Shown here: positions 1 through 23,611 of the stretch, piece by piece | Numbering within the stretch: position 1 is the stretch's first letter | Layout: every line of letters starts with the position of its first letter | Assembly (NCBI GenBank): GCA_044892525.1 | Contig: CM097885.1 | Coordinates: 35,280,001 to 35,344,000, forward strand | Direction: 5' to 3' | Length of the DNA stretch: 64,000 nt | DNA from: Schmidtea polychroa | Lineage: Eukaryota | Made by a program: the position numbers and the translations under genes | The notes under the pieces: model-generated | The model's input: only the letters and a program-made list of their open reading frames with translations | The model's database searches: none | Told to the model about the DNA's origin: nothing

Positions 1-312
1 AGAGCAATGCTGATCTAATATTTGATTCGGAATATGATATGTTTTATCATAATTACGGATAATAAAGATACCGCTACATGTTTTCATAGCATTCCTTTTG
101 AAATCAATCTTACATTGACTATAAAATGGGAATGTATTGTACACTAATGTAAAATCTTGCAGTGCAACTTCCCAGTCACCATTTAAAGAAATCGGATTCT
201 GGAGATTGACCATGAATTTACTGGCTTGATTATCTGGATGAATAAGCGGGCAACTATTGCTTGGTAAAATAGTATAAAAATTCACTTTACTAGATCCTTT
301 TCTGATATACAT
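1..312 (-). CDS. Polinton minor capsid protein (penton), N-terminal part; open to window edge
   Basis: Manual translation NFYTILPSNSCPLIHPDNQASKFMVNLQNPISLNGDWEVALQDF matches the Polinton penton N-terminal signature; paralogous to 10326..11030. Confidence 0.85.
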   Translation of the reverse strand, partial: MYIRKGSSKVNFYTILPSNSCPLIHPDNQASKFMVNLQNPISLNGDWEVALQDFTLVYNTFPFYSQCKIDFKRNAMKTCSGIFIIRNYDKTYHIPNQILDQHCS

Positions 313-910
313 GATGGGTTTTGATAACTATGCCATTTAACATAATATTGTTTATCCTTGCCGACCTTTTTAGTTTTCAATATCTTTTGAATTCTAAATA
401 CTTTTGGGGGAGGAATAACTTGTAATTCTTGCTCATAAAACTTTCCTTGTACAATATTGTTATCATAATCACTGATGACATACATTACAGGATTCTGACT
501 AGTATTTATTTTTGAAATTACAAAGACTTCATCACTCCAATTTGTATCGAAATTTTTAATAAATGGTGATGCACTAATTTTACTAATTCTAACATGGTCA
601 CCGACTTTATATTTAGGTTTTGCAATTTTTACAGATTTCTTAGAAGTCAATGATGTTTTTGATGTAATATCAACCGGTCTCAATCCATTCAGTCCTCGAT
701 GTGATGAATGATTATAACTTGTTATTATTTTCGGTAAAGCATTTACCCATTTTTTATTACCTTGATGCACGAATAATTTCTTTAATCTCTCTCTCAATGT
801 TCTGTTAAATCTTTCAACGTGGGCAGCTTTGTATTGAGAATGTACCGAGTAATGGTTTATTTTCAATTTATTGAGGATTTCCTTGACTTTACTGTTGTAG
901 AATTCTTTAC

Positions 911-914
911 CTAA

Positions 915-982
<68 letters not shown>
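911..982 (-). other. 72-nt GT-AG intron made of (ATT)n inside the integrase
   Basis: TTAG|GTATTATT...ATTTTAG|GTAAAGAA; removal converts the poly-Ile run into the canonical QTDLGKEF catalytic motif. Confidence 0.85.
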
Positions 983-1572
983 CTAAATCCGTTTGCAAGT
1001 TATTAGGATGTCCATCTTTAAATAAATCATTAACAGCTTTAGACATTTCATCTGCAGATTTTGCCTTGACGGGTATTGCTCTGGCAAACTGACTGAATAC
1101 ATCAATACATGTTAAAATATATTTATACCCATTGTTAATTTTCGAATAGGGTATCATCTCCATCAAATCCATTTGCCATAAATCATGGTAAAATATTAGT
1201 TGTCTCGCGTCTGTGTGCGCTTTTTTCTTTGTTTTGGTTGTGTGCGCACACAGACGCGTAAAATTAAAATGTAGAAATTTTTAATCCGATCCTCGCGTCT
1301 GTGTGCGCTTTTCTTTTCTTTGTGTTTGGCTGTGTGCACACACAGACGCGAGCAAGAGGTAAGTTGTTAATCTTTTAGATTTTAGATTTTTATCGATTTT
1401 GAATTTGTTAATTAGAGTTGGAATTTTATCGACGTTTGGAATGAATGATGATTAATTTGAATACATGTGGCTATTGCAATAAAGAGAGTTGTTAAAGATG
1501 GCAATGGAACTCGAGTTGTTGAACTCTTATGGATTTGGTTTTTCGTTTTGTATTATGAGCTTCCGATTAAAG

Positions 1573-1776
1573 ATGGCAACATCTAAATATAACGGGGGAT
1601 TGATGGTTCTCGGTGATTTAGTGGCAAGGTTGAATAGAACCCGCAGCAAAATGGAAATAGAAACTATTTGTAAAGACGATGTTATCAGATCTATCAAATC
1701 TATTAAAATTCTGGGTAATGGATTCTCTCTAATCACATTTTCTCGAGACCGGCAATTAGTTCAATCTGTACCTGAG
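1573..1776 (+). pseudogene. SNF8: ESCRT-II subunit SNF8/Vps22 fragment
   Basis: NGGLMVLGDL...DDVIRSIKSIKILGNGF...LVQSVPE resembles the SNF8 segment NGGLITLEEL...DDLIRAIKKLKALGTGF...LIQSVP. Confidence 0.8.
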
Positions 1777-1833
1777 CAAAATGGCCGAATCGATATTGTT
1801 TTGTGTTCAGAAAGGAATAATATGAGATCAAAT

Positions 1834-2110
1834 TTATGTGTAGCTACACAAAGACAGGTTCCAGATAAAATGATTGAGAAGAGTTCAGCTACAAGATTGT
1901 TTAATATTACTGAAAGTACTGGAAGTGTTATGACTGGTATGATCCCTGATTATCGATCTCAAGTATGTCGTGCACAAATGGAAGCAGCTCGATTTAGATA
2001 TAAACATGGATATGAAATGCCTTGCGACATAATAAGTCGTTCTGTTGCGGATATTAAGCAGTTTTCTACCCAATCAACCGAGATGCGACCATTAGGTTGT
2101 TCAATGATGA
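1834..2110 (+). pseudogene. PSMA6: Proteasome subunit alpha-6 fragment
   Basis: TQRQVPDKM..TRLFNITE..VMTGM..RSQV.RAQMEAA.FRYKHGYEMP.D..EMRPLGC is the PSMA6 pattern. Confidence 0.88.
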
Positions 2111-2215
2111 CATTATCTCCTGGTATGGACACGGAAAAACTGTTATTATTCAGAAATAAATTGATTATGTGTTATTATGAATTTGAAAATGAAGAAATCA
2201 TTTATTCAATATGTT

Positions 2216-2416
2216 TTATAAAATCTTGTTGGGAATCGTTTCTGCATTGGTTTGTTCAAACTGTGGGTTTCTTTTTTCGAATTCGGAACTCTTTTGTTTA
2301 ATTTTGCCACTCCACCGAAACCTGCTTCGTCTTCGGGGTTCGTCCAAATCTTCTCCATTACAACAAGAAGATTTAATATTAAATTTAATGTCTGGTAATG
2401 AAGGATTAGCACCCAT
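2216..2416 (-). CDS. Small ORF with N-myristoylation motif (MGANPS), overlapping the integrase start
   Basis: MGxxxS motif; starts 4 nt after the pX-like stop. Confidence 0.4.
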   Translation of the reverse strand: MGANPSLPDIKFNIKSSCCNGEDLDEPRRRSRFRWSGKIKQKSSEFEKRNPQFEQTNAETIPNKIL

Positions 2417-2419
2417 TGT

Positions 2420-2914
2420 TTATGATCGACTTCCTATTATTCCTCCTAATAATGATATTGCTAAAGGTATCAATGCACCGATAAATCCCCCTTGTTGTTT
2501 ATATATAATTTTCCTCATTTGTTGACAATTTTTATTATTTACTAATGATAGCAAAGGTTTCCTATGTTTACTCAATAATTGCTTTTTAGATTTACTGATT
2601 TTAATCTTGCCTTTGACTACTTTAAGTATAATATCGAGTAAATCATCGACAACATAATTTGGAAAAGATTGCAAAATACTGTTTCTTTTCATACTTGGTG
2701 CCTTTAACAATGTATTGAAAAACGGGAAACTCCGATGATTTTTAACAACTTTTAGTTTCTTAGTGGTTTTACTTTGAGGTTTAGGTTTAGGATTTTTCGA
2801 AATAAGATTCATTGCAGGAAAGTTTTCTGTAATAAGTTCTTTAGATGGAGTATAACTAGCTGTTGGTGGAACTTTGGGTTGTTTTTTAATAGATATCCTT
2901 GTTTTTGAAAACAT
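2420..2914 (-). CDS. Basic core / membrane-active protein (adenovirus pX-like, 'GasderminX'-type adintovirus gene)
   Basis: Lys-rich; C-terminal KQQGGFIGALIPLAISLLGG with an adenain-like GG/F site and amphipathic tail; adjacent to the ATPase. Confidence 0.7.
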   Translation of the reverse strand: MFSKTRISIKKQPKVPPTASYTPSKELITENFPAMNLISKNPKPKPQSKTTKKLKVVKNHRSFPFFNTLLKAPSMKRNSILQSFPNYVVDDLLDIILKVVKGKIKISKSKKQLLSKHRKPLLSLVNNKNCQQMRKIIYKQQGGFIGALIPLAISLLGGIIGSRS

Positions 2915-2927
2915 TACTTATATGTTT

Positions 2928-3566
2928 TCAAATTTGTTTTGAACTTTGTTTATAAACCATGGCACCTTTTGGGTTGAAAATATCTGTTTTTACTCGTATA
3001 TCATCAGGACATTGTTGTGTGAAATCGAGAAATATATACCCATGAGGTATTTTCGTAGCATCTTGAAATGCATTGATAAGAAAATTACGGTTATTAGGGT
3101 ATGCTTGTCGTCCAAGAAAATCAATGACAGTTGCATCTCTAGGATTCTTGAAAATAACTAGATATTGTACATTTAAATTACGTGTTCGATGTGCACCACC
3201 TTGATGAAATAGATTTTGTGTTATGAAAATAACTGTTACACCAACATGTCTGCTGATTTTTGTGAATAAATTATTAAAATCCTTTTCTTTCTTGGCTTCT
3301 TGATACAAATCATCGATAATGATGACATCATCTTTCTTCAAACGACTTGACCAGTTTTTATCAAAACCCTTTACTATTTTCATGTTTTTCAATTGACAGA
3401 AACTTGATTGCGTCAATCCATGTTCTTCATCGGCGCCCCTATGCCAATAAATATTGTTGAATTTTGTTTTGAACAAATTTGATTTTAGTAATTTACAAAC
3501 AAATAATGTTTTTCCGCTACCACTTGGACCAACGATTTGGTATACTGCATCATTTCGTAATTCCAT
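2928..3566 (-). CDS. A32/FtsK-like DNA packaging ATPase
   Basis: Walker A GPSGSGKT, Walker B IIIDD, SRH, ITQN, FKNPRD motifs; intact 212 aa. Confidence 0.95.
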   Translation of the reverse strand: MELRNDAVYQIVGPSGSGKTLFVCKLLKSNLFKTKFNNIYWHRGADEEHGLTQSSFCQLKNMKIVKGFDKNWSSRLKKDDVIIIDDLYQEAKKEKDFNNLFTKISRHVGVTVIFITQNLFHQGGAHRTRNLNVQYLVIFKNPRDATVIDFLGRQAYPNNRNFLINAFQDATKIPHGYIFLDFTQQCPDDIRVKTDIFNPKGAMVYKQSSKQI

Positions 3567-3672
3567 TTTTTAAATTTAAACTATATAATTATTGTTTATA
3601 TTGATAATTTAAATGAACTCCTTTTTAAAATAACTATATATATAACAGAGTTTTTATAATTATTTCATTAAA

Positions 3673-4126
3673 ATCCCTTCAAATATAAATTACAGGGCAA
3701 AAGCTGATGTATCAAAAATGATATTTCCAATGTGGAAACCACAACAACTCATCAATAGAAGTAAAAAATATCCAATAATATATTTCAAAACTGGTAAATG
3801 TAGAATTATGGGATGTAAGGAAATAATCAAAGCTAGTGAATATAATGTTTATGATTTAGAAATACAATCGATAACCGTAACTTCCGATATAGGTTTTTCT
3901 TGTAATTTAAATAAATTGGCTAAATTAATACCATGCTTTTACGAACCAGAATTATTTTCAGCTTTGAGATTATATAAAATATAACCCTATATTCGCTAGC
4001 GGTAAGATAGTAATTCTTGGAATAAAAAATATTGATTACAAATGTATAGTTGATAATATCATATCTGAAATTAAATCAATAATTGAAGGAAATGAATTTT
4101 TAGATTTTTTATTATCACTTAATTAA
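3673..4126 (+). pseudogene. TATA-binding protein (TBP)-like homologue; frameshift/small deletion near 3985 and no in-frame ATG at the predicted start
   Basis: SNINY (cf. QNIV), IIYFKTGKCRIMGCK (repeat 1), IQSITVTSDIGF..LNKLA, FYEPELFSAL, then FASGKIVILG from 3992 in another frame (repeat 2). Confidence 0.8.
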
Positions 4127-4247: not shown

Positions 4248-4326
4248 ATGTACAACATACAAAGTTCCGCAATCATCTCAATGAAAGAGAATGCAAATTA
4301 TGGTAATTTCAAATATTTATTATTAC

Positions 4327-4420
<94 letters not shown>

Positions 4421-4729
4421 GATGAGTATCAATCAATTATCCTGCAAAGATTATGCTTCTATTATCCAGAATTAAATGAAATTCTACAAGATAGAGATCA
4501 AGCTATCATTTCGGATTTGGTATACAACCAAACACGAATCTGGATATTCGATATAATAAACACCTTTCTATGGGATATCAAAATAGGAAGGGTGATGAAA
4601 GAAATGAAACCAGAGGTTCCTTGCATTTTCGGATGTAGCTGTTGCAATTTCCGTTATCAACAATATGTTGAATGGTGTTTGGTGAAGACTCTGAGAAATC
4701 ACCACTCGAGTCAGATTGTATCAAAATAA
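4248..4729 (+). CDS. Unknown Polinton cargo protein with Cys cluster (CIFGCSCC); probable (TA)n intron ~4303-4419
   Basis: ATG 4248, GT at 4303, TTAG at 4416-4419; exon 2 is open from ~4421 to 4729, but the exon phase join is uncertain; CCAAT boxes upstream. Confidence 0.5.
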
Positions 4730-4993
4730 ATTTTTATGTTGAATTGTTTTGTTTTTGTAAATCGAAATAATAGAAATAGAAATAATAATAGTAATAGAAA
4801 TAGTAATAATATAAGTAATAATAGTAATATTAGAAATAATAATAAAAAACAATATTTATAATAAAAACATTAATGCAACATTAATGCAAATAACATGCTA
4901 TTTAAACAAAGACATGCAGCAATCTGATTGGTTGATAAACAATAGTCATAGGTATAAAAACCCTGTACCATTTCATTTTAATCATAATTCACG

Positions 4994-5413
4994 ATGACAA
5001 AGAAAATTTCAAGCACTGAAAAACCAAAAGTTGTTCCAGAACTTGTACAACCTGTTCAAATGTTCCACAACTACAAAATGTATTTTTTAAAAGAAGAAAT
5101 CAATATGAAATTGGTGTCACCGATCAAGCTAATTCCTACCCAATTTCAATTTTTTTCCAGCACACTTTCAATGATAGATATTACATCTATTGATGAGGTT
5201 TTCAAACGGTTGAATACGAATCTATCCTGTAATCAACATGCATTTTTCAACAACCGATATGCAAGATTTTATGATTCCTTTGATGAAATCAGCTTCAAAG
5301 AAAACGAAAATTGGTATATAACAATTGCAATCCAAGGATATAAAGTTGATAATAATGATGTGTATTCTCCAATTTGGAAAATTATGTCTGCTAGACTTTC
5401 ACAAATATTTTAA
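4994..5413 (+). CDS. Possible OB-fold single-stranded DNA-binding protein
   Basis: Intact 139 aa with CCAAT (4927) and TATAAAA (~4953) upstream. C-terminal ITIAIQGY....YSPIWKIM resembles the terminal strands of T7 gp2.5-like viral SSBs (inference). Confidence 0.45.
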   Translation: MTKKISSTEKPKVVPELVQPVQMFHNYKMYFLKEEINMKLVSPIKLIPTQFQFFSSTLSMIDITSIDEVFKRLNTNLSCNQHAFFNNRYARFYDSFDEISFKENENWYITIAIQGYKVDNNDVYSPIWKIMSARLSQIF

Positions 5414-5546
5414 TGTTATATTTAATAAATGTATTAGTCATATTTGTTTTTTCTCTTTATTAATTGCAACATTAATGCAAATGACATGCAAATTTAACAA
5501 AGAAAATCTATAAACAAACTTATAATATAGTTTTAAAGTGTTATTA

Positions 5547-5899
5547 ATGACTACAGAAAAAGGTTAACATGATTAATTAATTTCCAAATTATTTATTATT
5601 TAGAATTATTAATCAACTTTTTGTTGGCAAAATTAGCAGAAATATCTGGTGTAAAAATTGAGGATGTATTATCTGTTACAAATGCATTAAATATCGGCTG
5701 GGTAGTTGAGAGTCAAGATTCAGGATTTGACGATCAGGAAGAAACCGATACTCAAGAAATTGATGACGAAATCTATGAACCTATAGATGAACCTATAGAG
5801 GAACCTAAAGATAATATTACGAATGATTGTATTGATCATGTCGTTGAAAATATAATGAAATGTGGAGATGACGACTGCGAATGTGTTAATAAATTTTAG
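5547..5899 (+). CDS. Acidic small cargo protein, two exons (intron 5563-5603)
   Basis: ATG ACT ACA GAA AAA G|gt...tag|AA TTA joins in frame with ORF 5621; D/E-rich, DSGFD motif, C-terminal Cys residues. Confidence 0.7.
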
Positions 5900-5959: not shown

Positions 5960-6480
5960 TTAATTTTTATTTAAAAATCGGGATAAAACATACAAAATAG
6001 CAACACCTGTTGCAAGTTTTATATAGTTTTTAAATTTCTTTTTCTGTTCATCTATTTCCTTCGCATTTCTGGCGAGTTGATTCAGTACGCCCCATCCGCC
6101 ATTGGCTTCAATCCATGGTTGAAACTTTGACTTGATTATCTAGAAAATAAATATTAATAAAATATAGATTATAAAAGTATTACTTCTTGAGACCACTGAT
6201 AATAATGTTCCGAGTCCCATAAACTTTTTTCGATTATGACCTTCATATAAGCGAACCCTACTAGTATTCGGGTCCACTTCATCTCATCGTCACATAGGCA
6301 GTTAAAAATCCTATGAAAATATAATTTTTTCGTTTCGAGACAATCGGAATTGAGCACATCCTCATAATCGATATGATTTCCTTCGATAATCTTTTCGGTC
6401 CGGTCCACCAGGAAACTCAGGCTTTCCACAATCTTCTTGTTGATAACTTCGCTTAAAAGATTTTCCATAAAATGAGACAT
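5960..6480 (-). CDS. Bcl-2 family protein, 158 aa, two exons (6480-6184 and 6139-5960), tail-anchored
   Basis: BH1-like DDEMKWTRILVGFAY. After a 44-nt GT-AG intron comes BH2 PWIEANGGW, then TM YIKLATGVAILYVLSRF and LNKN*. No stops or frameshifts. Confidence 0.85.
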
Positions 6481-6708
6481 TTCTACAATAATTTAAAATA
6501 TGATGTTTTATTTATACTAATACCGTATGATTTTGATTGGTTGATAGACTATAAATGTAAAAGAAAGGTTTTGATTTGATACACCATGAAAACTATATTC
6601 ATATTGCTAATTATTATAACGAGTGTGTGCTAACACAATACTATATATTTTATAATATTCGACTATGTTTTTAGTTAACCATGATTTGTGATAGAAATTT
6701 GAAATTAT

Positions 6709-6804
<96 letters not shown>

Positions 6805-6839
6805 TATCAATAGATAGATCTTATACTAGACTTTAAGAT

Positions 6840-7444
6840 GAGCTATCGATGAGAACACTAACTTGTTGCATGTGTGGACACTAATAATATTTTTACACAT
6901 TGTGTGTGACCATAGGGGGACAGAATATCTTGTCGGATAGACTATATATACAAAGTATGTGCAATAATTTTATTTTGTCAACTTAATCGTCAAAATAAGT
7001 TTTTTAAAATTTAAAATTTAAAATACCGCAACGTAATATATTCAATAATTAAAATATAATTAAAATTTAAAATACCGCAACGTAATATATTTAATAATTA
7101 AAATATAATTAAAATTTAAAATACCGCAACGTAATATATTTAATAATTAAAATATAATTAAATTTTAAAATACCGCAACGTAATATATTTTAAAAGTATG
7201 ATGTGTCTTTGTTCAAAATTTTCCCCTTTGTTATGCAATATGTCTTTGTTACGTAATATGTCTTTGTTTCAATGACCTTGATGAGTCATATGTCCTTGTT
7301 ACGTAATTTTTAAAATAAAATAAAAAAAAATTTTAAAAAAATTAAAAACCCCCTCCCCGGGGTGGAGGTATGACGTCATATGTCTTTGTGACGTCATCGA
7401 TGGCGTCATATGTCTTTGTTCCCGGCTCCACACATTACCCTACT
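6840..7444. repeat. Polinton terminal/subterminal region (probable TIR)
   Basis: Colinear homology with ~30745-31302 and ~18100-18258; TATGTCTTTGTT repeats, GC block, TGACGTCA at 7371 and 7389. Confidence 0.75.
7008..7193. repeat. 49-bp tandem repeat (~3.7 copies) containing AAAATACCGCAACGTAAT
   Basis: CCG core recurs at 7026, 7075, 7124 and 7173. Confidence 0.9.
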
Positions 7445-9730
7445 GCTAACAAACGCAATAGAAATGAAAAACCCTTCACCAAGGCAGATTAGACAAATCA
7501 ATTTCATTTCACAATTCAACTGCACAATAAACTACGCAGCAGGGAAATCAAACATAGCAGCAGATGCTCTATCCAGAATTGAAAGTGACATAAACGCTCT
7601 AGAATTCGGAGAAATAATCGAATCGGATCAAATCAAATCCAGACAAACCGATACATTAAGCAAACTGCCTACTAAAAACAGCCTTAAACTACAGGAACTC
7701 GACGGAATATGGCACGATGTCTCCAACGAAAGCAACAAACGAATCCTACTACCCGAAGAACTCCGACAAGACTGCATAAAAAAGATACATGCTATCAATC
7801 ATCCGGGAAACAAAAAAACATTCGAGTTAATACATAACAAATATGTATGGCCTCACATGCGGGAAGACATCAAGAATTACGTCAAAAGTTGCCACAGCTG
7901 TCAATTAAATAAAACAACAAAAAAACCCAAAACACAAAAAGTAAACTTCCCAAGCAGTGAAGCGTTTGAAACAATACACACAGACGTAGTAGGACCACTA
8001 CTACCAAACGACACTATAAATATCTACTAACAATTATAGACAGAAAAACCAATTGGTTCGAAGCGATACCAATAAAAGAAATTACAGCAAAAAATATCTG
8101 CGAAATGATCGAACTAAACTGGATAGCTCGTTACGGCCAACCGAAAACAATCATAACTGATCAAGGCAGACAATTCGAATCAGAAATGTTCAAAATAATG
8201 TGCAATAAATACAATATCAAAAAAAACAGCTTACAACCCACAATCAAATGGGAAAATTGAACGGTTTCACAGAACATTAAAAGAAAGCATCAGGACAAAA
8301 GCCAATGACCAAAACTGGTTAATCCAACTTCCAACAATATTAATCGGACTAAGAAATAGCCCAAACTCAACAGATAATGAAAGTCCAGCATACAAAATTT
8401 TCGGAAAAGCAACAAACTTGCCATCACTTAAATCAGATACAAACAAAACCACCGAAAACAGCAAACAAATAACAAACAAAAATAGCGAAACCACCGAACA
8501 GAAACCAAAAGGAATTTTAAAAAGAAGACCGGACTCCGAATTAGACGGAAAAATAGTATTAACAACAGAGTTCATCTTAATAAAAAAACCATTCACAAAA
8601 GGATTCGAATCCAAATACGAGGGTCCATTCAAACTCCTAGAAATTAACAAAAACGTCGCTACAATAATCCAAAACAACAACAAAATAAAAATAAACATAA
8701 GACGAATAAAACCCTATCACCAAAACGAAAACCCACAAAACAACCGACCAGAAAACAAAACACAAACACAAACGAAAACACAATCAATTCACAAAAGAAT
8801 CACATTTAACACCAAAAACTTAATCAAACTATATTTGATAAAGATACAATAATCACACCCCTATACAAAAAACGATACAGTGATTGTCTTAATTAAAACA
8901 CCAACAAAAAAAACACACGCACAAACAATGCCAATTGTACAGTTTTTTATTAATATTCTTGTAAATATAGAGTAAATCGTAAGTTTTTGTTGTATACAGC
9001 TTGTAAATACAAAGAAACAGAAACAAAATACATAAAAACATAAAAAAAGGTTATTGAATGTAATTTTTTTTATGTTACTTTTTATTGATTCATGTTAACC
9101 TCCGGTTTTAAAGGGGGAAGTTATGTAATGTAAAGCGATTTTTATTAATATTTTAGTGTTCACAATTAGGAATTGTGAATACTAAAATATAAAATGCCAC
9201 CATCTGTGGAAATCCAGATTTTTAAAAAAAAACTATATAGCGATAATTTACTATAGGAAATAAAAAAATCGAAAGAAATTGAATGATTAATTATATGTCT
9301 TCAAAACTTCTGTTTGTAAGTTCAAATGCTAAACAAATTTGATAAAGAAACTGAATTAAGAAATTGAATTAAGAAACTGAATTAAGAAATTGAATTAAGA
9401 AACTGAATTAAGAAATTGAATTAAGAAACTGAATTAAGAAATTGAATTAAGGAACTGAATTAAGAAATTGAATTAAGAAACTGAATTAAGAAATCGAATT
9501 AAGAAACTGAATTGAGAAATTGAATTAAGCTGAATTGATCCAAGTAGTATTATTTTTATTTTGTTCAGTAAACGTGTGATATTATTTGAATATTGTTGAA
9601 TATTAATTTTGTTTTTTATTTATTATTGTTACATCACATAGCACAGCCTGCACCCCGATTGTCCCGCCACAAGTTTTAACGGAGACTCTTTCGGGCCCAT
9701 CAATTTTCTTATTAAACATACAACTTAATA
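7445..9730 (+). mobile_element. Gypsy LTR retrotransposon 3' half (end of RNase H, integrase, PPT, 3' LTR)
   Basis: RQIRQINFISQF..GKSNIAADALSR, H-H-C-C zinc domain, IHTDVVGPL, TDQGRQFES, KIERFHRTLK, YEGPF; PPT AAAGGGGGAAG at 9110-9120; LTR end approximate. Confidence 0.9.
9347..9535. repeat. 13-bp tandem repeat GAAA(C/T)TGAATTAA in the LTR, alternating variants
   Basis: About 14 contiguous units. Confidence 0.9.
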
Positions 9731-16104: not shown

Positions 16105-16638
16105 TGTTGAGGATACCTAAATAACAATTTATAAAGAAATAAATAAAATTTCCTGGGGAAGATTGCCATGACAAACTGGACGATCTATTGTAACTCAGAA
16201 AAGAAAACGGAAGTAAAAAGAAATAAAAAATGAGAAAGATAAAGGAAATAAAAGGAATCAAATAGGAAAATGAAAACCAAGGTCAGTACTAATTAATTAG
16301 TACAAAAAGGAAAAGGAATTTTGAAATCAAGGAAAAAGGAAAAACAACAATATCCTTATCTTGACAGCTTACCAGTGATAAAAGAATTGATGGGAGAAGG
16401 CGGTCAAACAAAAAAAGGAAAAAGGGAAAATAACTTGACAGCTGTCAGAGATAAAAATGGGACAGTCGGAGAAAGCAAGAGAAGGAAAATGGAAAAACAC
16501 TTGATTATCTAGAGTGCCACAAGAGAAGCGAACTATATAAGGAAAAACTGGTGGACATGAAATTAGAAGAAAATTAGAGACAAAGTGACGCGAAATTGAA
16601 AACAATTTGGAAGACGATTTGAGAGACGATTTGAGAGA
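16105..16638. mobile_element. Truncated LTR, inverted relative of the solo LTR at 27414-28511
   Basis: Starts TGTTGAGGATACC, the reverse complement of the 28511 end; homology extends ~530 bp. Confidence 0.85.
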
Positions 16639-17553
16639 TTACTGTCCCCATTTTTTGAATATGATCTTCTATTTCTTTGATGAGACAATCTGGAACAACA
16701 ATGTCAGGAGAATTAATTGCAGATACATCGCTTGTCAATTCAACGCGAGAACCATTTAAGTCAGACTCCCGACGTGGACACAATTGAATGTTAGAGTATC
16801 CATTTCCGTAAAATATTGACTTTCGTTTTGTGGTGCCAGAGTTTTGCTTAACTATATTTATAATTAATATTAAACTATTTAAATAACATAACTTGTAACA
16901 TATTCTTTAATCTCCTCAGGATCGTATGATGTATTCATTTTCGATTGTACTATAAAAAATAATAATTGTTAATAGTATAAAGAGAATTACTTTTAGTAAT
17001 CATAATACTCTTCGTTTCTTCGAATCTTCTAAGATGGTGTCCGTGTTGTCGTAAAAACATTAACCACCTACCTGGTGTTATAATGAGACATTCCGGACAC
17101 ATGTAACCCGATAAAGTAGAGTCATTTATCTTGAAATATGATGATGTAACTGATTTACAGTTCTCAACATCTTCATGACTTTCGGCAATACAAAATTTAT
17201 ATAAAGTGCATCCGTTCACCTAAAGAAAATAATCATGAATAATAGATAAAGAATAAATTATTCAATTATATATTTTAAATTAAAAGTTTAAATGACAAAC
17301 AATTGAAAAGTTACTACTAATATATTACACATGATTAAATTCTGACCAATTAAAATCAAGGAAGAGGTAGAACAAAAATACATTACGTTGCGGTATTTTA
17401 AAACTTAATTATATTTTAAAAATATATTTTGAGGCTAAAGTTTATTTATTTAACATTTTCATAATAATTTCAGGAACATTTTTATAATTTTTGCCTCAAT
17501 TTCATGATTATTTTTAACATTTTCATAGTTTTCAACATATTCATAATTTCCAA

Positions 17554-17686
<133 letters not shown>

Positions 17687-17982
17687 TCTGAAATATTTAA
17701 TCAAATTGTAACATTATAAAAATATTATAACCAAGTAATGACATTTCGGAAATATTTCAACAGATGTAAAATATTTAAGCAAATAATAAAAATTAATAAA
17801 TGATTTTATCAAATCGCAACAAAGTTATAAAATATTTAAACAAAATGTAACAAGATTATAAAAATATTGAAACAAAGTAATAAAATAATGTGATGAATCC
17901 ACAAAGTAATAACATTTTTCATCAAATTGCAAAACAGTAATAACGTTTTTCATAAAATTGTAAGAGAGAAAAAAAACAGTAG

Positions 17983-18258
17983 AGTAGGGTAATGTGTGTA
18001 CCCGGGTGAAACCTTTGCATAGATCTTTTCAAGACCTTTCGAATGATACCCTGTTTTGAAAGTTTGACCTTATTTATCCTTTGGAAATTAATGAACGCGT
18101 AATATGTCTTTGTTACGTAATTTTAAAAAAAATTTTAAAAAAAATTTAAAAAAAATTTTAACCCCCGGGGTAGGGGGCTGGGGTATAACGTAATCTCCTT
18201 TGTGACGTCATCGATTACGTAATAGTTCTTTGTTTCCGGGTCCACACATTACCCTACT
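17983..18258. mobile_element. 276-bp mini-element with Polinton termini at both ends
   Basis: AGTAGGGTAATGTGTG...CACACATTACCCTACT; right ~160 bp similar to 7250-7444. Confidence 0.75.
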
Positions 18259-18339
18259 CTACTGTTTTTTTCTCTCTCTTTTTCACTCCTTTGTCTCTTT
18301 TCCCTTTGTCCGATTGGGATTTAAGTGTAACCATGTATA

Positions 18340-18780
18340 AGCAGAATTTAATTCTCTACAAAATGGCTCAATTACAATTTTAGTTTGTCGCTTTGTGTGT
18401 AATACACACATGTTTTACGATAAATTTGTATTTTTCGCGCGGTTAACGTAATATTTTTGGATTTTTATTCATATATTATATAGATAAAATTTAATTTTCT
18501 ATAAAATAGCTTGATTAAAAATTATGTCTCGTATGTTGTGTGTAATACACACATGTTTTTACGATAAATTTGTATTTTTCATACAGTTAACGTAATTTTC
18601 TTAGGATTTTATTCATATAATATATAGATAAAATTTAGTTTTCTATAAAATGGATTGATTAGAAATTATGTATCTTGTTTTGTGTGTAATACACACATGT
18701 TTTTAAGATAAATTTGTATTTATTATACGTTAACGTATAGAGATAAAATTTAATTTTCTATAAAATGGATTTATCTAGAG
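18340..18780. repeat. ~144-bp tandem repeat x3, each with a TGTGTGTA-A-TACACACA hairpin
   Basis: Units at ~18394, ~18537 and ~18681. Confidence 0.8.
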
Positions 18781-19444
18781 TTTAAAATGTTGTATTATTT
18801 TATTACTTTGTTGCAATATTTTTATAATCTTATAACAATTTGCTTAAATATTTTACATCTGTTGAAATATTTGAAATATTACTTTGTTGATATTTACTGA
18901 AAGACTTCACAATTTATTACAATATTCTTTTTAATTTGTTATCCGTCTTCGAAATAATGTATTGATTTGTCCCAATTAACATCATTATTTTATTAGTTTG
19001 TTGCAATATTTTTATTATTTTAGTTACAATTTGATAAATATTTTACAACTTTGTTGAAATTTTCTGAAATATGTTACTACTTTGTTGTAATATTTTCTAA
19101 TCTTGTTACAATTTGCTTAAATATTTTACAACTGTTGAAAATTTATCTGAAATATGTTATTACTTTGTTACAATTTTATGAAAAACGTTATTACTGTTTT
19201 GCAATTTGATGAAAAATGTTATTACTTTGTGGATTCATCACATTATTTTATTACTTTGTTTCAATATTTTTATAATCTTGTTACATTTTGTTTAAATATT
19301 TTATAACTTTGTTGCGATTTGATAAAATCATTTATTAATTTTTATCATTTGCTTAAATATTTTACATCTGTTGAAATATTTCCGAAATGTCATTACTTGG
19401 TTGTAATATTTTTATAATGTTACAATTTGATTAAATATTTCAGA

Positions 19445-19511
<67 letters not shown>

Positions 19512-19736
19512 TTGGAAATTATGAATATGTTGAAAACTATGAAAATGTTAAAAATAATCATGAAATTGAGGCAAAAATTATAAAAATGTTCCTGAAATTA
19601 TTATGAAAATGTTAAATAAATAAACTTTAGCGTCAAAATGTATTTTTAAAATATAATTAAGTTTTAAAATACCGCAACGTAATGTATTTTTGTTCTACCT
19701 CTTCCTTGATTTTAATTGGTCAGAATTTAATCATAG

Positions 19737-23611
<3,875 letters not shown>

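Follow-up and report, generated by a model that had tools for sequence, protein, structure and literature searches.

A conserved TATA-binding-protein homologue of Polintons and a matching putative promoter box

Background

Viral proteins that mimic the TATA-binding protein (TBP) are known from the beta- and gammaherpesviruses (KSHV ORF24, EBV BcRF1, and HCMV UL87), which lack an RNA polymerase of their own and mark their late genes with a variant box (TATT). KSHV ORF24 contains four Phe residues but no TFIIB-facing acidic residues; it contacts the Pol II CTD via an additional domain and depends on five further viral factors (PMC12529657 and PMC7498053, in the parts covered). TBPs of giant viruses are paired with a viral TFIIB and a viral polymerase; their TFIIB contacts have diverged, and most viral TBPs have also lost helix H2, which in canonical eukaryotic TBP carries a basic patch bound by TFIIA, TAF1, Mot1, and Brf (PMC7221094, in part). 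Among non-viral variants, TRF2 has lost intercalating Phe residues (PMC10005294, in part), while the engineered TBPm3 reads an altered TATA sequence due to changes at three positions, I194, V203, and L205 (PMC1636458, in part).

The gene expression of Polintons is essentially undescribed in the searchable literature, and it is a long-standing question whether these elements are, in animals, true viruses with an infection cycle. A 'TBP' label is present in a figure legend on MELD viruses in Starrett et al. 2021 (PMC8502044); section 3.4, one supplement, and parts of the preprint neither discuss the label nor mention a promoter box. The covered parts of PMC11161782, PMC11296320, and PMC12220804 contain no relevant terms, and Polintons are unnamed in four searched supplement files of PMC7221094. 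As far as the searched literature goes (subscription papers, Repbase notes, figures, and bioRxiv supplements aside), a Polinton TBP was found in print only as a map label. A conserved viral TBP, together with a putative promoter box that matches it, is described below, starting from one Polinton of Schmidtea polychroa.

The locus and its element

The window, i.e., the whole analysed stretch of 64,000 nucleotides (contig CM097885.1, positions 35,280,001 to 35,344,000 of assembly GCA_044892525.1), contains a Polinton-borne gene of TBP fold (Table 1). The copy is disrupted, as originally noted: it has no start codon at 3673-3675, and the frame shifts at small indels near 3970-3990, so that IYFKTGKCRIMGCK and YEPELFSAL are encoded in frame 1 and FASGKIVILG in frame 2. 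The frame-1 piece (first 111 residues) matches the Pfam TBP family PF00352 with an E-value of 1.1e-6, above the curated cut-off. All three motifs quoted in the original prediction as marks of two recognisable TBP repeats are present; the N-terminal repeat proved incomplete, with its strands kept and the helices H1 and H2 missing. Likewise, the divergent arrangement with the packaging ATPase across about 100 bp holds for this copy (head-to-head, spacer of 106 bp), whereas the two genes share a strand in 26/28 metagenome contigs that hold both.

Table 1. Annotated features of the Polinton at the start of the window
Feature	Position	Strand	Remarks
Putative minor capsid gene, 5' end	1..355	-	label from gene order; ATAAAC at 350-355
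rve integrase with chromodomain	282..2433	-	Pfam rve and Chromo both below cut-off; ~1-kb insert at 1187-2194
PX: basic protein, GG-type cleavage-like motif near C-terminus	2420..2914	-	no Pfam match
YATAAACR box 5' of integrase 5' part	2496..2503	-	second box at 2417-2424
A32-like genome-packaging ATPase	2928..3566	-	start at 3566; Pfam Pox_A32 E 1.8e-7
YATAAACR box within ATPase 3' end	2947..2954	-	~39 nt before next gene
YATAAACR box	3593..3600	-	~33 nt before ATPase start; putative late core promoter
Ordinary TATA-type run	3635..3646	+	~30-38 nt before TBP start; putative host-read (early) promoter, from sequence
Mini-TBP gene	3673..4126	+	154 aa in open copies; broken here
Small ORF, no named family	4307..4729	+	CCAAT boxes and octamer (4291) upstream
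T7 gp2.5-type SSB	4988..5413	+	upstream octamer (4884), CCAAT (4927), TATAAAA (4953)
TATAAACA box (5509) and acidic small ORF (5573-5899)	5509..5899	+	
Bcl-2-like ORF near element end	6169..6492	-	weak Pfam match below cut-off, E 0.0068; 0.0017 in another copy
Repeat-rich end region of element	6700..7445	.	then retrotransposon-like sequence

The element resembles the Polintons, Mavericks, and adintoviruses of Starrett et al. 2021 (PMC8502044, in part) in its genes for PolB, rve integrase, A32 ATPase, adenain-like protease, and capsid proteins. This set occurs within one element, as judged from the gene order in copies and from Pfam matches for ATPase, protease, and integrase. The order in this first group of elements is PolB, protease, putative major capsid, PW, putative minor capsid, integrase, PX, and ATPase, with TBP and SSB encoded on the opposite strand; the two capsid labels in the TBP-bearing group rest on order and size, with no Pfam match, and PW and PX serve as working names. 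Remnants of the capsid, protease, and PolB genes of this element precede the window, within 10 kb of it (L193).

A search of the same genome for further copies of the TBP gene yielded 3644 first-look candidates; scores were computed for 150 of them. Only the best-scoring loci were read, so that the following counts are not a genome-wide rate: the frame is open in 19/19 other top-scoring copies, the window copy being the only broken one among 20 loci. With a canonical TBP as query, the genome yielded six TBP/TRF loci of the host as well as five additional Polinton TBP families, which share 56-62% identity with the first; open copies are present in at least six such families. Two of the host loci (L123 and L127, among L122-L127) are single-ORF and divergent.

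Outside this genome, a word search found 97 related proteins, and a word-free search returned 113 matches at E-values up to 1e-10, which mix family members with cellular TBPs. A Polinton core gene is present in 40 of the 81 relative loci fetched and in 27/36 among those of at least 3 kb; two of the loci hold canonical TBPs. At least three layouts occur: the TBP gene adjoins SSB and ATPase, follows the protease and an exonuclease-like gene, or is flanked by a PLA2 gene and the ATPase. In a query with the ATPase only, two (L182 and L183) of four GTDB contigs carry a TBP gene and boxes. Scans of IMG/VR gave no match for a single TBP protein, the ATPase, or the capsid, and one match for the TBP alignment, which is a TBP of the giant-virus type; in the ESM Atlas, only generic TBP clusters with low recognition were obtained, and none for SSB.

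Protein architecture

The natural open copy P0001 (154 aa) matches solved TBP structures with E-values down to 1.5e-16. Its structure model (pLDDT 96) superimposes on TBPs over 139-146 residues (Z 10.6-12.6, rmsd 2.2-3.3 A), which identifies the two-lobed saddle fold of the TBP superfamily (PF00352); for comparison, the TBP-like RepDE proteins match with Z about 6. According to the model, the C-lobe is complete, while the N-lobe retains its strands and lacks H1 and H2. This region is short in 120/156 measurable members of the family, long in 18, and intermediate in 18; in the 18 long members H2 is mostly acidic instead of basic. The family thus lacks the basic H2 patch of canonical eukaryotic TBP. 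Most members have 140-200 aa, with the TBP fold spanning the whole model, and within this size range none has the additional N-terminal Pol II-binding domain or the C-terminal domain of the herpesvirus type.

Residues were counted in 198 non-canonical family members, with yeast numbering assigned by offset. Three of the four intercalating Phe residues, which the original prediction had singled out for inspection, are kept almost without exception (F116 in 172/173, F190 in 197/197, and F207 in 193/193), whereas the fourth is replaced, Phe being found at the F99 position in 1/163. The acidic TFIIB-contact stirrup of the C-lobe, also singled out, is retained: E186 is present in 185/197 members and E188 in 194/197 (with the word-free search by itself, 96/108 and 105/108). 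The acidic pair is numbered E184/E188 in PMC12529657 (in part), while the offset used here gives E186/E188. Asn occupies the N69 position in 151/158, and the second Asn (N159) is Ser or Thr, a near-fixed change of the DNA-facing surface. Further near-fixed changes of this surface are V122R (173/174), T124M (189/190), L205N (193/194), I194R (176/197), and V203C (176/195).

Like eukaryotic and archaeal TBPs, the Polinton protein has an almost full-length saddle fold (Z up to 12.6) with N69, F116, F190, P191, F207, and the acidic stirrup. Unlike them, it measures only about 150 aa, has lost H1/H2 in the main clade and has no F99, carries fixed polar or charged substitutions at V71, V122, N159, I194, and L205, and forms a separate branch of the tree. 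The loss of an intercalating Phe is reminiscent of TRF2/TBPL1, which is a full-size host paralogue, and the three positions altered in TBPm3 are changed here as well, although to R, C, and N, in natural and fixed form. Among viral proteins, TBPs of Nucleocytoviricota and mirusviruses are the best fold matches (E 1.5e-7), while BcRF1 is a weak structural match (Foldseek E 0.014). The analogy with the herpesvirus vTBPs, put forward in the original prediction, holds for the logic and for a DNA-binding face of greater polarity (V122, T124, and L205 are among the changed positions); the mechanism appears to differ, as the Polinton protein is a bare domain with three Phe residues that keeps the TFIIB pair and has no counterpart of the extra domain of ORF24.

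Selection and phylogeny

The TBP gene is under purifying selection, judging from its codons. The dN/dS ratio among copies, proposed earlier as a check, is 0.10-0.45, well below 1 (17 pairs with pS 0.1-0.5; only open frames were used, which biases the ratio low). Between families of this genome it is 0.10-0.37 in 12/15 pairs, the unsaturated ones, again from open frames only.

In a quick maximum-likelihood tree of 94 rows, computed without bootstrap, 46 Polinton-type rows (genomic context is known for part of the rows) constitute one side of a branch with SH-aLRT 99; the short forms nest inside the Polinton side (98), and the six host TBP/TRF loci fall among eukaryotic TBPs. The giant-virus TBP L021, the single one in the tree and on a long branch, is placed on the cellular side. 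The broken window copy, taken alone, could suggest a recently captured and decaying pseudogene of host TBP/TRF. Open frames in all the other copies read, six families at 56-62% identity, dN/dS well below 1, and the separation from the host paralogues argue against this reading so consistently that its probability is negligible; both outcomes that the original prediction had named as fatal to it, clustering with host TBP/TRF and a lack of intact copies, thus failed to appear.

The YATAAACR box

Upstream regions of the ATPase genes share the motif ATAAAC, whose flanks extend to YATAAACR. Occurrences were counted in non-redundant windows from -60 to -18 relative to the start codon, after removal of L021 and L101 (canonical TBPs) and of L094, whose ATPase match is doubtful; upstream windows that were nearly identical and genes for which no start lay within 45 nt of the expected position were left out as well. 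The box precedes the ATPase in 27/27 cases, about 35 nt upstream (shuffles: mean 1.8, maximum 5), PX in 12/12, the minor capsid gene in 10/12, the major capsid gene in 7/11, the exonuclease-like gene in 10/13, and PLA2 in 7/9. It is rare before TBP (1/56) and SSB (1/18), and ATAAAC is the top 6-mer in an unbiased count (73/84 vs 2/74). A shared motif upstream of the capsid genes had been predicted, and the box that was found marks packaging and structural genes; in this it corresponds to the variant TATA box of late herpesvirus genes, although late timing would follow here from the gene class.

The association is not universal, as the box precedes the integrase in 5/11 and PW in 2/9. For PolB, a separate check with a wider window gave 1/9, and the PolB gene of L069 has a box; the ATPase gene of L182 is without one. 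In the window, an ATAAAC at 4935 before the SSB gene is preceded by G and hence does not match YATAAACR. TATAWAW is found before 28/56 non-redundant TBP genes, and in this genome TATAAAT takes the place of the box before the protease gene in 5/5 cases seen. A donor-like GTAAGT directly follows the protease ATG in 7/8 stretches (protease 5' ends L104, L194-L198, L029, and L031) and is likely to mark an intron.

The strand bias is pronounced: in 14 elements totalling 85 kb, 107 boxes are in sense orientation (17 expected) and one is in antisense (11 expected). Where it overlaps the end of the ATPase gene, identical codons are used in 13/13 elements (7.5 expected); the nominal P of 4e-4 is optimistic due to the relatedness of the elements.

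A single base separates TATAAACA from the host consensus. The box also resembles a forkhead site. Since it is so close to the host consensus and host TBP was crystallised on a C(-25) variant (PDB ID: 1qn3, source covered in part), host TBP or one of the six host paralogues might read it. In the Polinton protein, the residue expected to face the C at box position 7, L114, has remained hydrophobic, and the changed residues face position 2, an ordinary A. The C of the box could be accounted for either by the loss of F99 together with V122R, the N-lobe Phe pair being presumably placed at the 3' kink, or by a reversed orientation of the protein. A reverse orientation relative to cellular TBP is improbable, but may hold because the other strand, TGTTTATR, puts a G at position 2 under the face formed by L205N, I194R, and V203C.

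A TBP-less Polinton group in the same genome

A second Polinton group (2407 first-look candidates), characterised by a PLA2-integrase fusion and the double jelly-roll capsid PF21738 (L154-L173, e.g., C2:180467801-180487000), provides a contrast. No TBP was found within the gene block of 10 of its elements, the four TBP matches there belonging to neighbouring first-group elements. The box is absent from 61 upstream windows (0/61), with a sense count of 7 versus 16 expected; two ATPase copies have ATAAAC at about -9, outside the counted window. Instead, a TAA run abuts the ATG in 54/61 windows, versus 48/158 in the first group. The TBP-less control consists of one lineage (10 elements of one genome) and one 5.5-kb contig (L184); the co-occurrence of TBP and box therefore amounts to one lineage against one, a contrast rather than a phylogenetic test. 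The TAA-ATG motif is similar to the late promoters of poxviruses and hints that the second group may depend on a helper-virus polymerase.

Proposed role and alternatives

The viral TBP is probably made early, reads YATAAACR as a late box, and recruits TFIIB and Pol II of the host; both binding and timing are deduced here from sequence and models. The TBP gene would be transcribed early by the host machinery from its ordinary TATA promoter, as would SSB and PolB via host TBP. The viral TBP would then bind the box through its remodelled concave face, and host TFIIB would be drawn to the packaging and capsid genes by the intact acidic C-lobe stirrup, with Pol II following, so that the host polymerase would be redirected. 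With the N-lobe helices lost, the protein may be blind to TFIIA, TAF1, Mot1/BTAF1, and Brf1. Transcription by Pol II in the nucleus fits the donor-like GTAAGT after the protease ATG as well as the octamer and CCAAT boxes. Among the 32 + 14 element ORFs compared with Pfam, no member of a TFIIB or RNA polymerase family was detected, although a very divergent one could escape such a search. A wider claim is quite possible, if somewhat on the doubtful side: that the protein and its box form an orthogonal TBP-promoter pair of natural origin (specificity altered at the TBPm3 positions, a private box, unmodified host TFIIB and Pol II, and escape from all N-lobe regulators) and constitute an early-to-late programme of a large Polinton clade, the smallest known.

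The box might rather be read by a host factor (TBP, a TBP/TRF paralogue, or a forkhead protein) while the viral protein does another job, e.g., as a TFIIB decoy or a damper of host transcription. The closeness of the box to the TATA consensus, the six host TBP/TRF loci together with the expanded TFIIB paralogues, and the acidic stirrup as the best-kept protein-binding surface would suit such an arrangement. A decoy, however, has no need of a fixed, family-specific DNA-reading face with three Phe residues; the box has been conserved between widely differing elements and, presumably, hosts; its fixed position and antisense depletion fit a core promoter better than an enhancer site; and the TBP-less group of the same host is without it. 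A host reader is therefore unlikely, though it is the strongest of the competing explanations.

Considerably less probable is cooperation of the viral TBP with a helper giant virus or another machinery outside Pol II, i.e., a viral TFIIB and polymerase or Brf1/Pol III. Almost all TBP-bearing viruses also have TFIIB and Brf1/2 use the same Glu (PMC7221094, in part), and virophages and PLVs borrow helper polymerases, according to sources covered in part. Yet the first Glu, kept in only about 40% of viral TBPs (same source, in part), is present in 185/197 members here; splice-donor-like sites, octamer, and CCAAT boxes speak for a nuclear location; the H2 patch required by Brf1 has been lost; and it is the TBP-less group, with TAA directly at the ATG in 54/61, whose appearance suggests dependence on a helper. 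The frequent neighbourhood of SSB (22/81) or ATPase (28/81) and the existence of TBP-like folds in proteins unrelated to transcription (RepDE, Z about 6) raise the thought of a DNA-bending structural, replication, or packaging factor, with the box as a packaging or origin signal. One box per gene on the sense strand at a fixed distance from the start codon, and the retention of the TFIIB-facing Glu pair, make this slightly more remote still than a helper.

A dedicated late factor and its matching box would imply that particle production follows a timed programme, and the data suggest a switch made of a single protein, by which late viral genes are turned on using the host polymerase; the question of Polintons as viruses becomes testable, since the protein and its 8-bp target are defined. 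In terms of transcription, nature has here carried out an experiment on a TBP, which retains the contact to TFIIB but has shed the regulatory lobe surface, a solution opposite to that of the herpesvirus and giant-virus TBPs.

Additional observations

The TFIIB candidates of the whole genome number only 32, and those read are host genes. The TFIIB-family matches include 13/21 intronless, divergent paralogues of about 304 aa, clustered at C3:38.2-39.1 Mb and C1:23.8-24.2 Mb (L186-L188). These multi-copy ORFs were considered as Polinton genes and dismissed, as three of them were read and had no surrounding Polinton gene set. A 141-aa neighbour of TBP, considered as a partner transcription factor, was dismissed as well because of its gp2.5-type SSB fold. 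This conserved neighbour has no Pfam match, and the model of a homologue (L031:1788-2135) resembles phage SSBs (Z 8.3, 8.1, and 7.7), with T7 gp2.5/Enc34 and ASFV CP312R at Z 8.3-6.9.

Perfect octamers ATGCAAAT are located at 4291, 4884, 5475, and 5486, upstream of three small genes of the element, two of which are also preceded by CCAAT boxes; control of early genes by a POU factor is possible on this pattern. In contigs from four sequence-run sets that are guessed to be RNA and are possibly DNA, the TBP gene is covered in X1, and poly(A)-like loose ends follow SSB and ATPase-side genes in X3.

The insert that splits the integrase gene consists of joined fragments of an EAP30/Vps36-family gene and a proteasome subunit, and a related insert is present at another site in L004. 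A (TAA)n tract inside the integrase frame (about 915-985, reverse strand) is likely an intron. Fragments of a further PolB-bearing element are located at 16574-23611 of the window. Accessory genes of related elements (L029:225-722, L022:3975-4316, L079:6944-7909, and L075:13315-13914) encode ubiquitin E2, dual-specificity phosphatase, KilA-N, and RING proteins.
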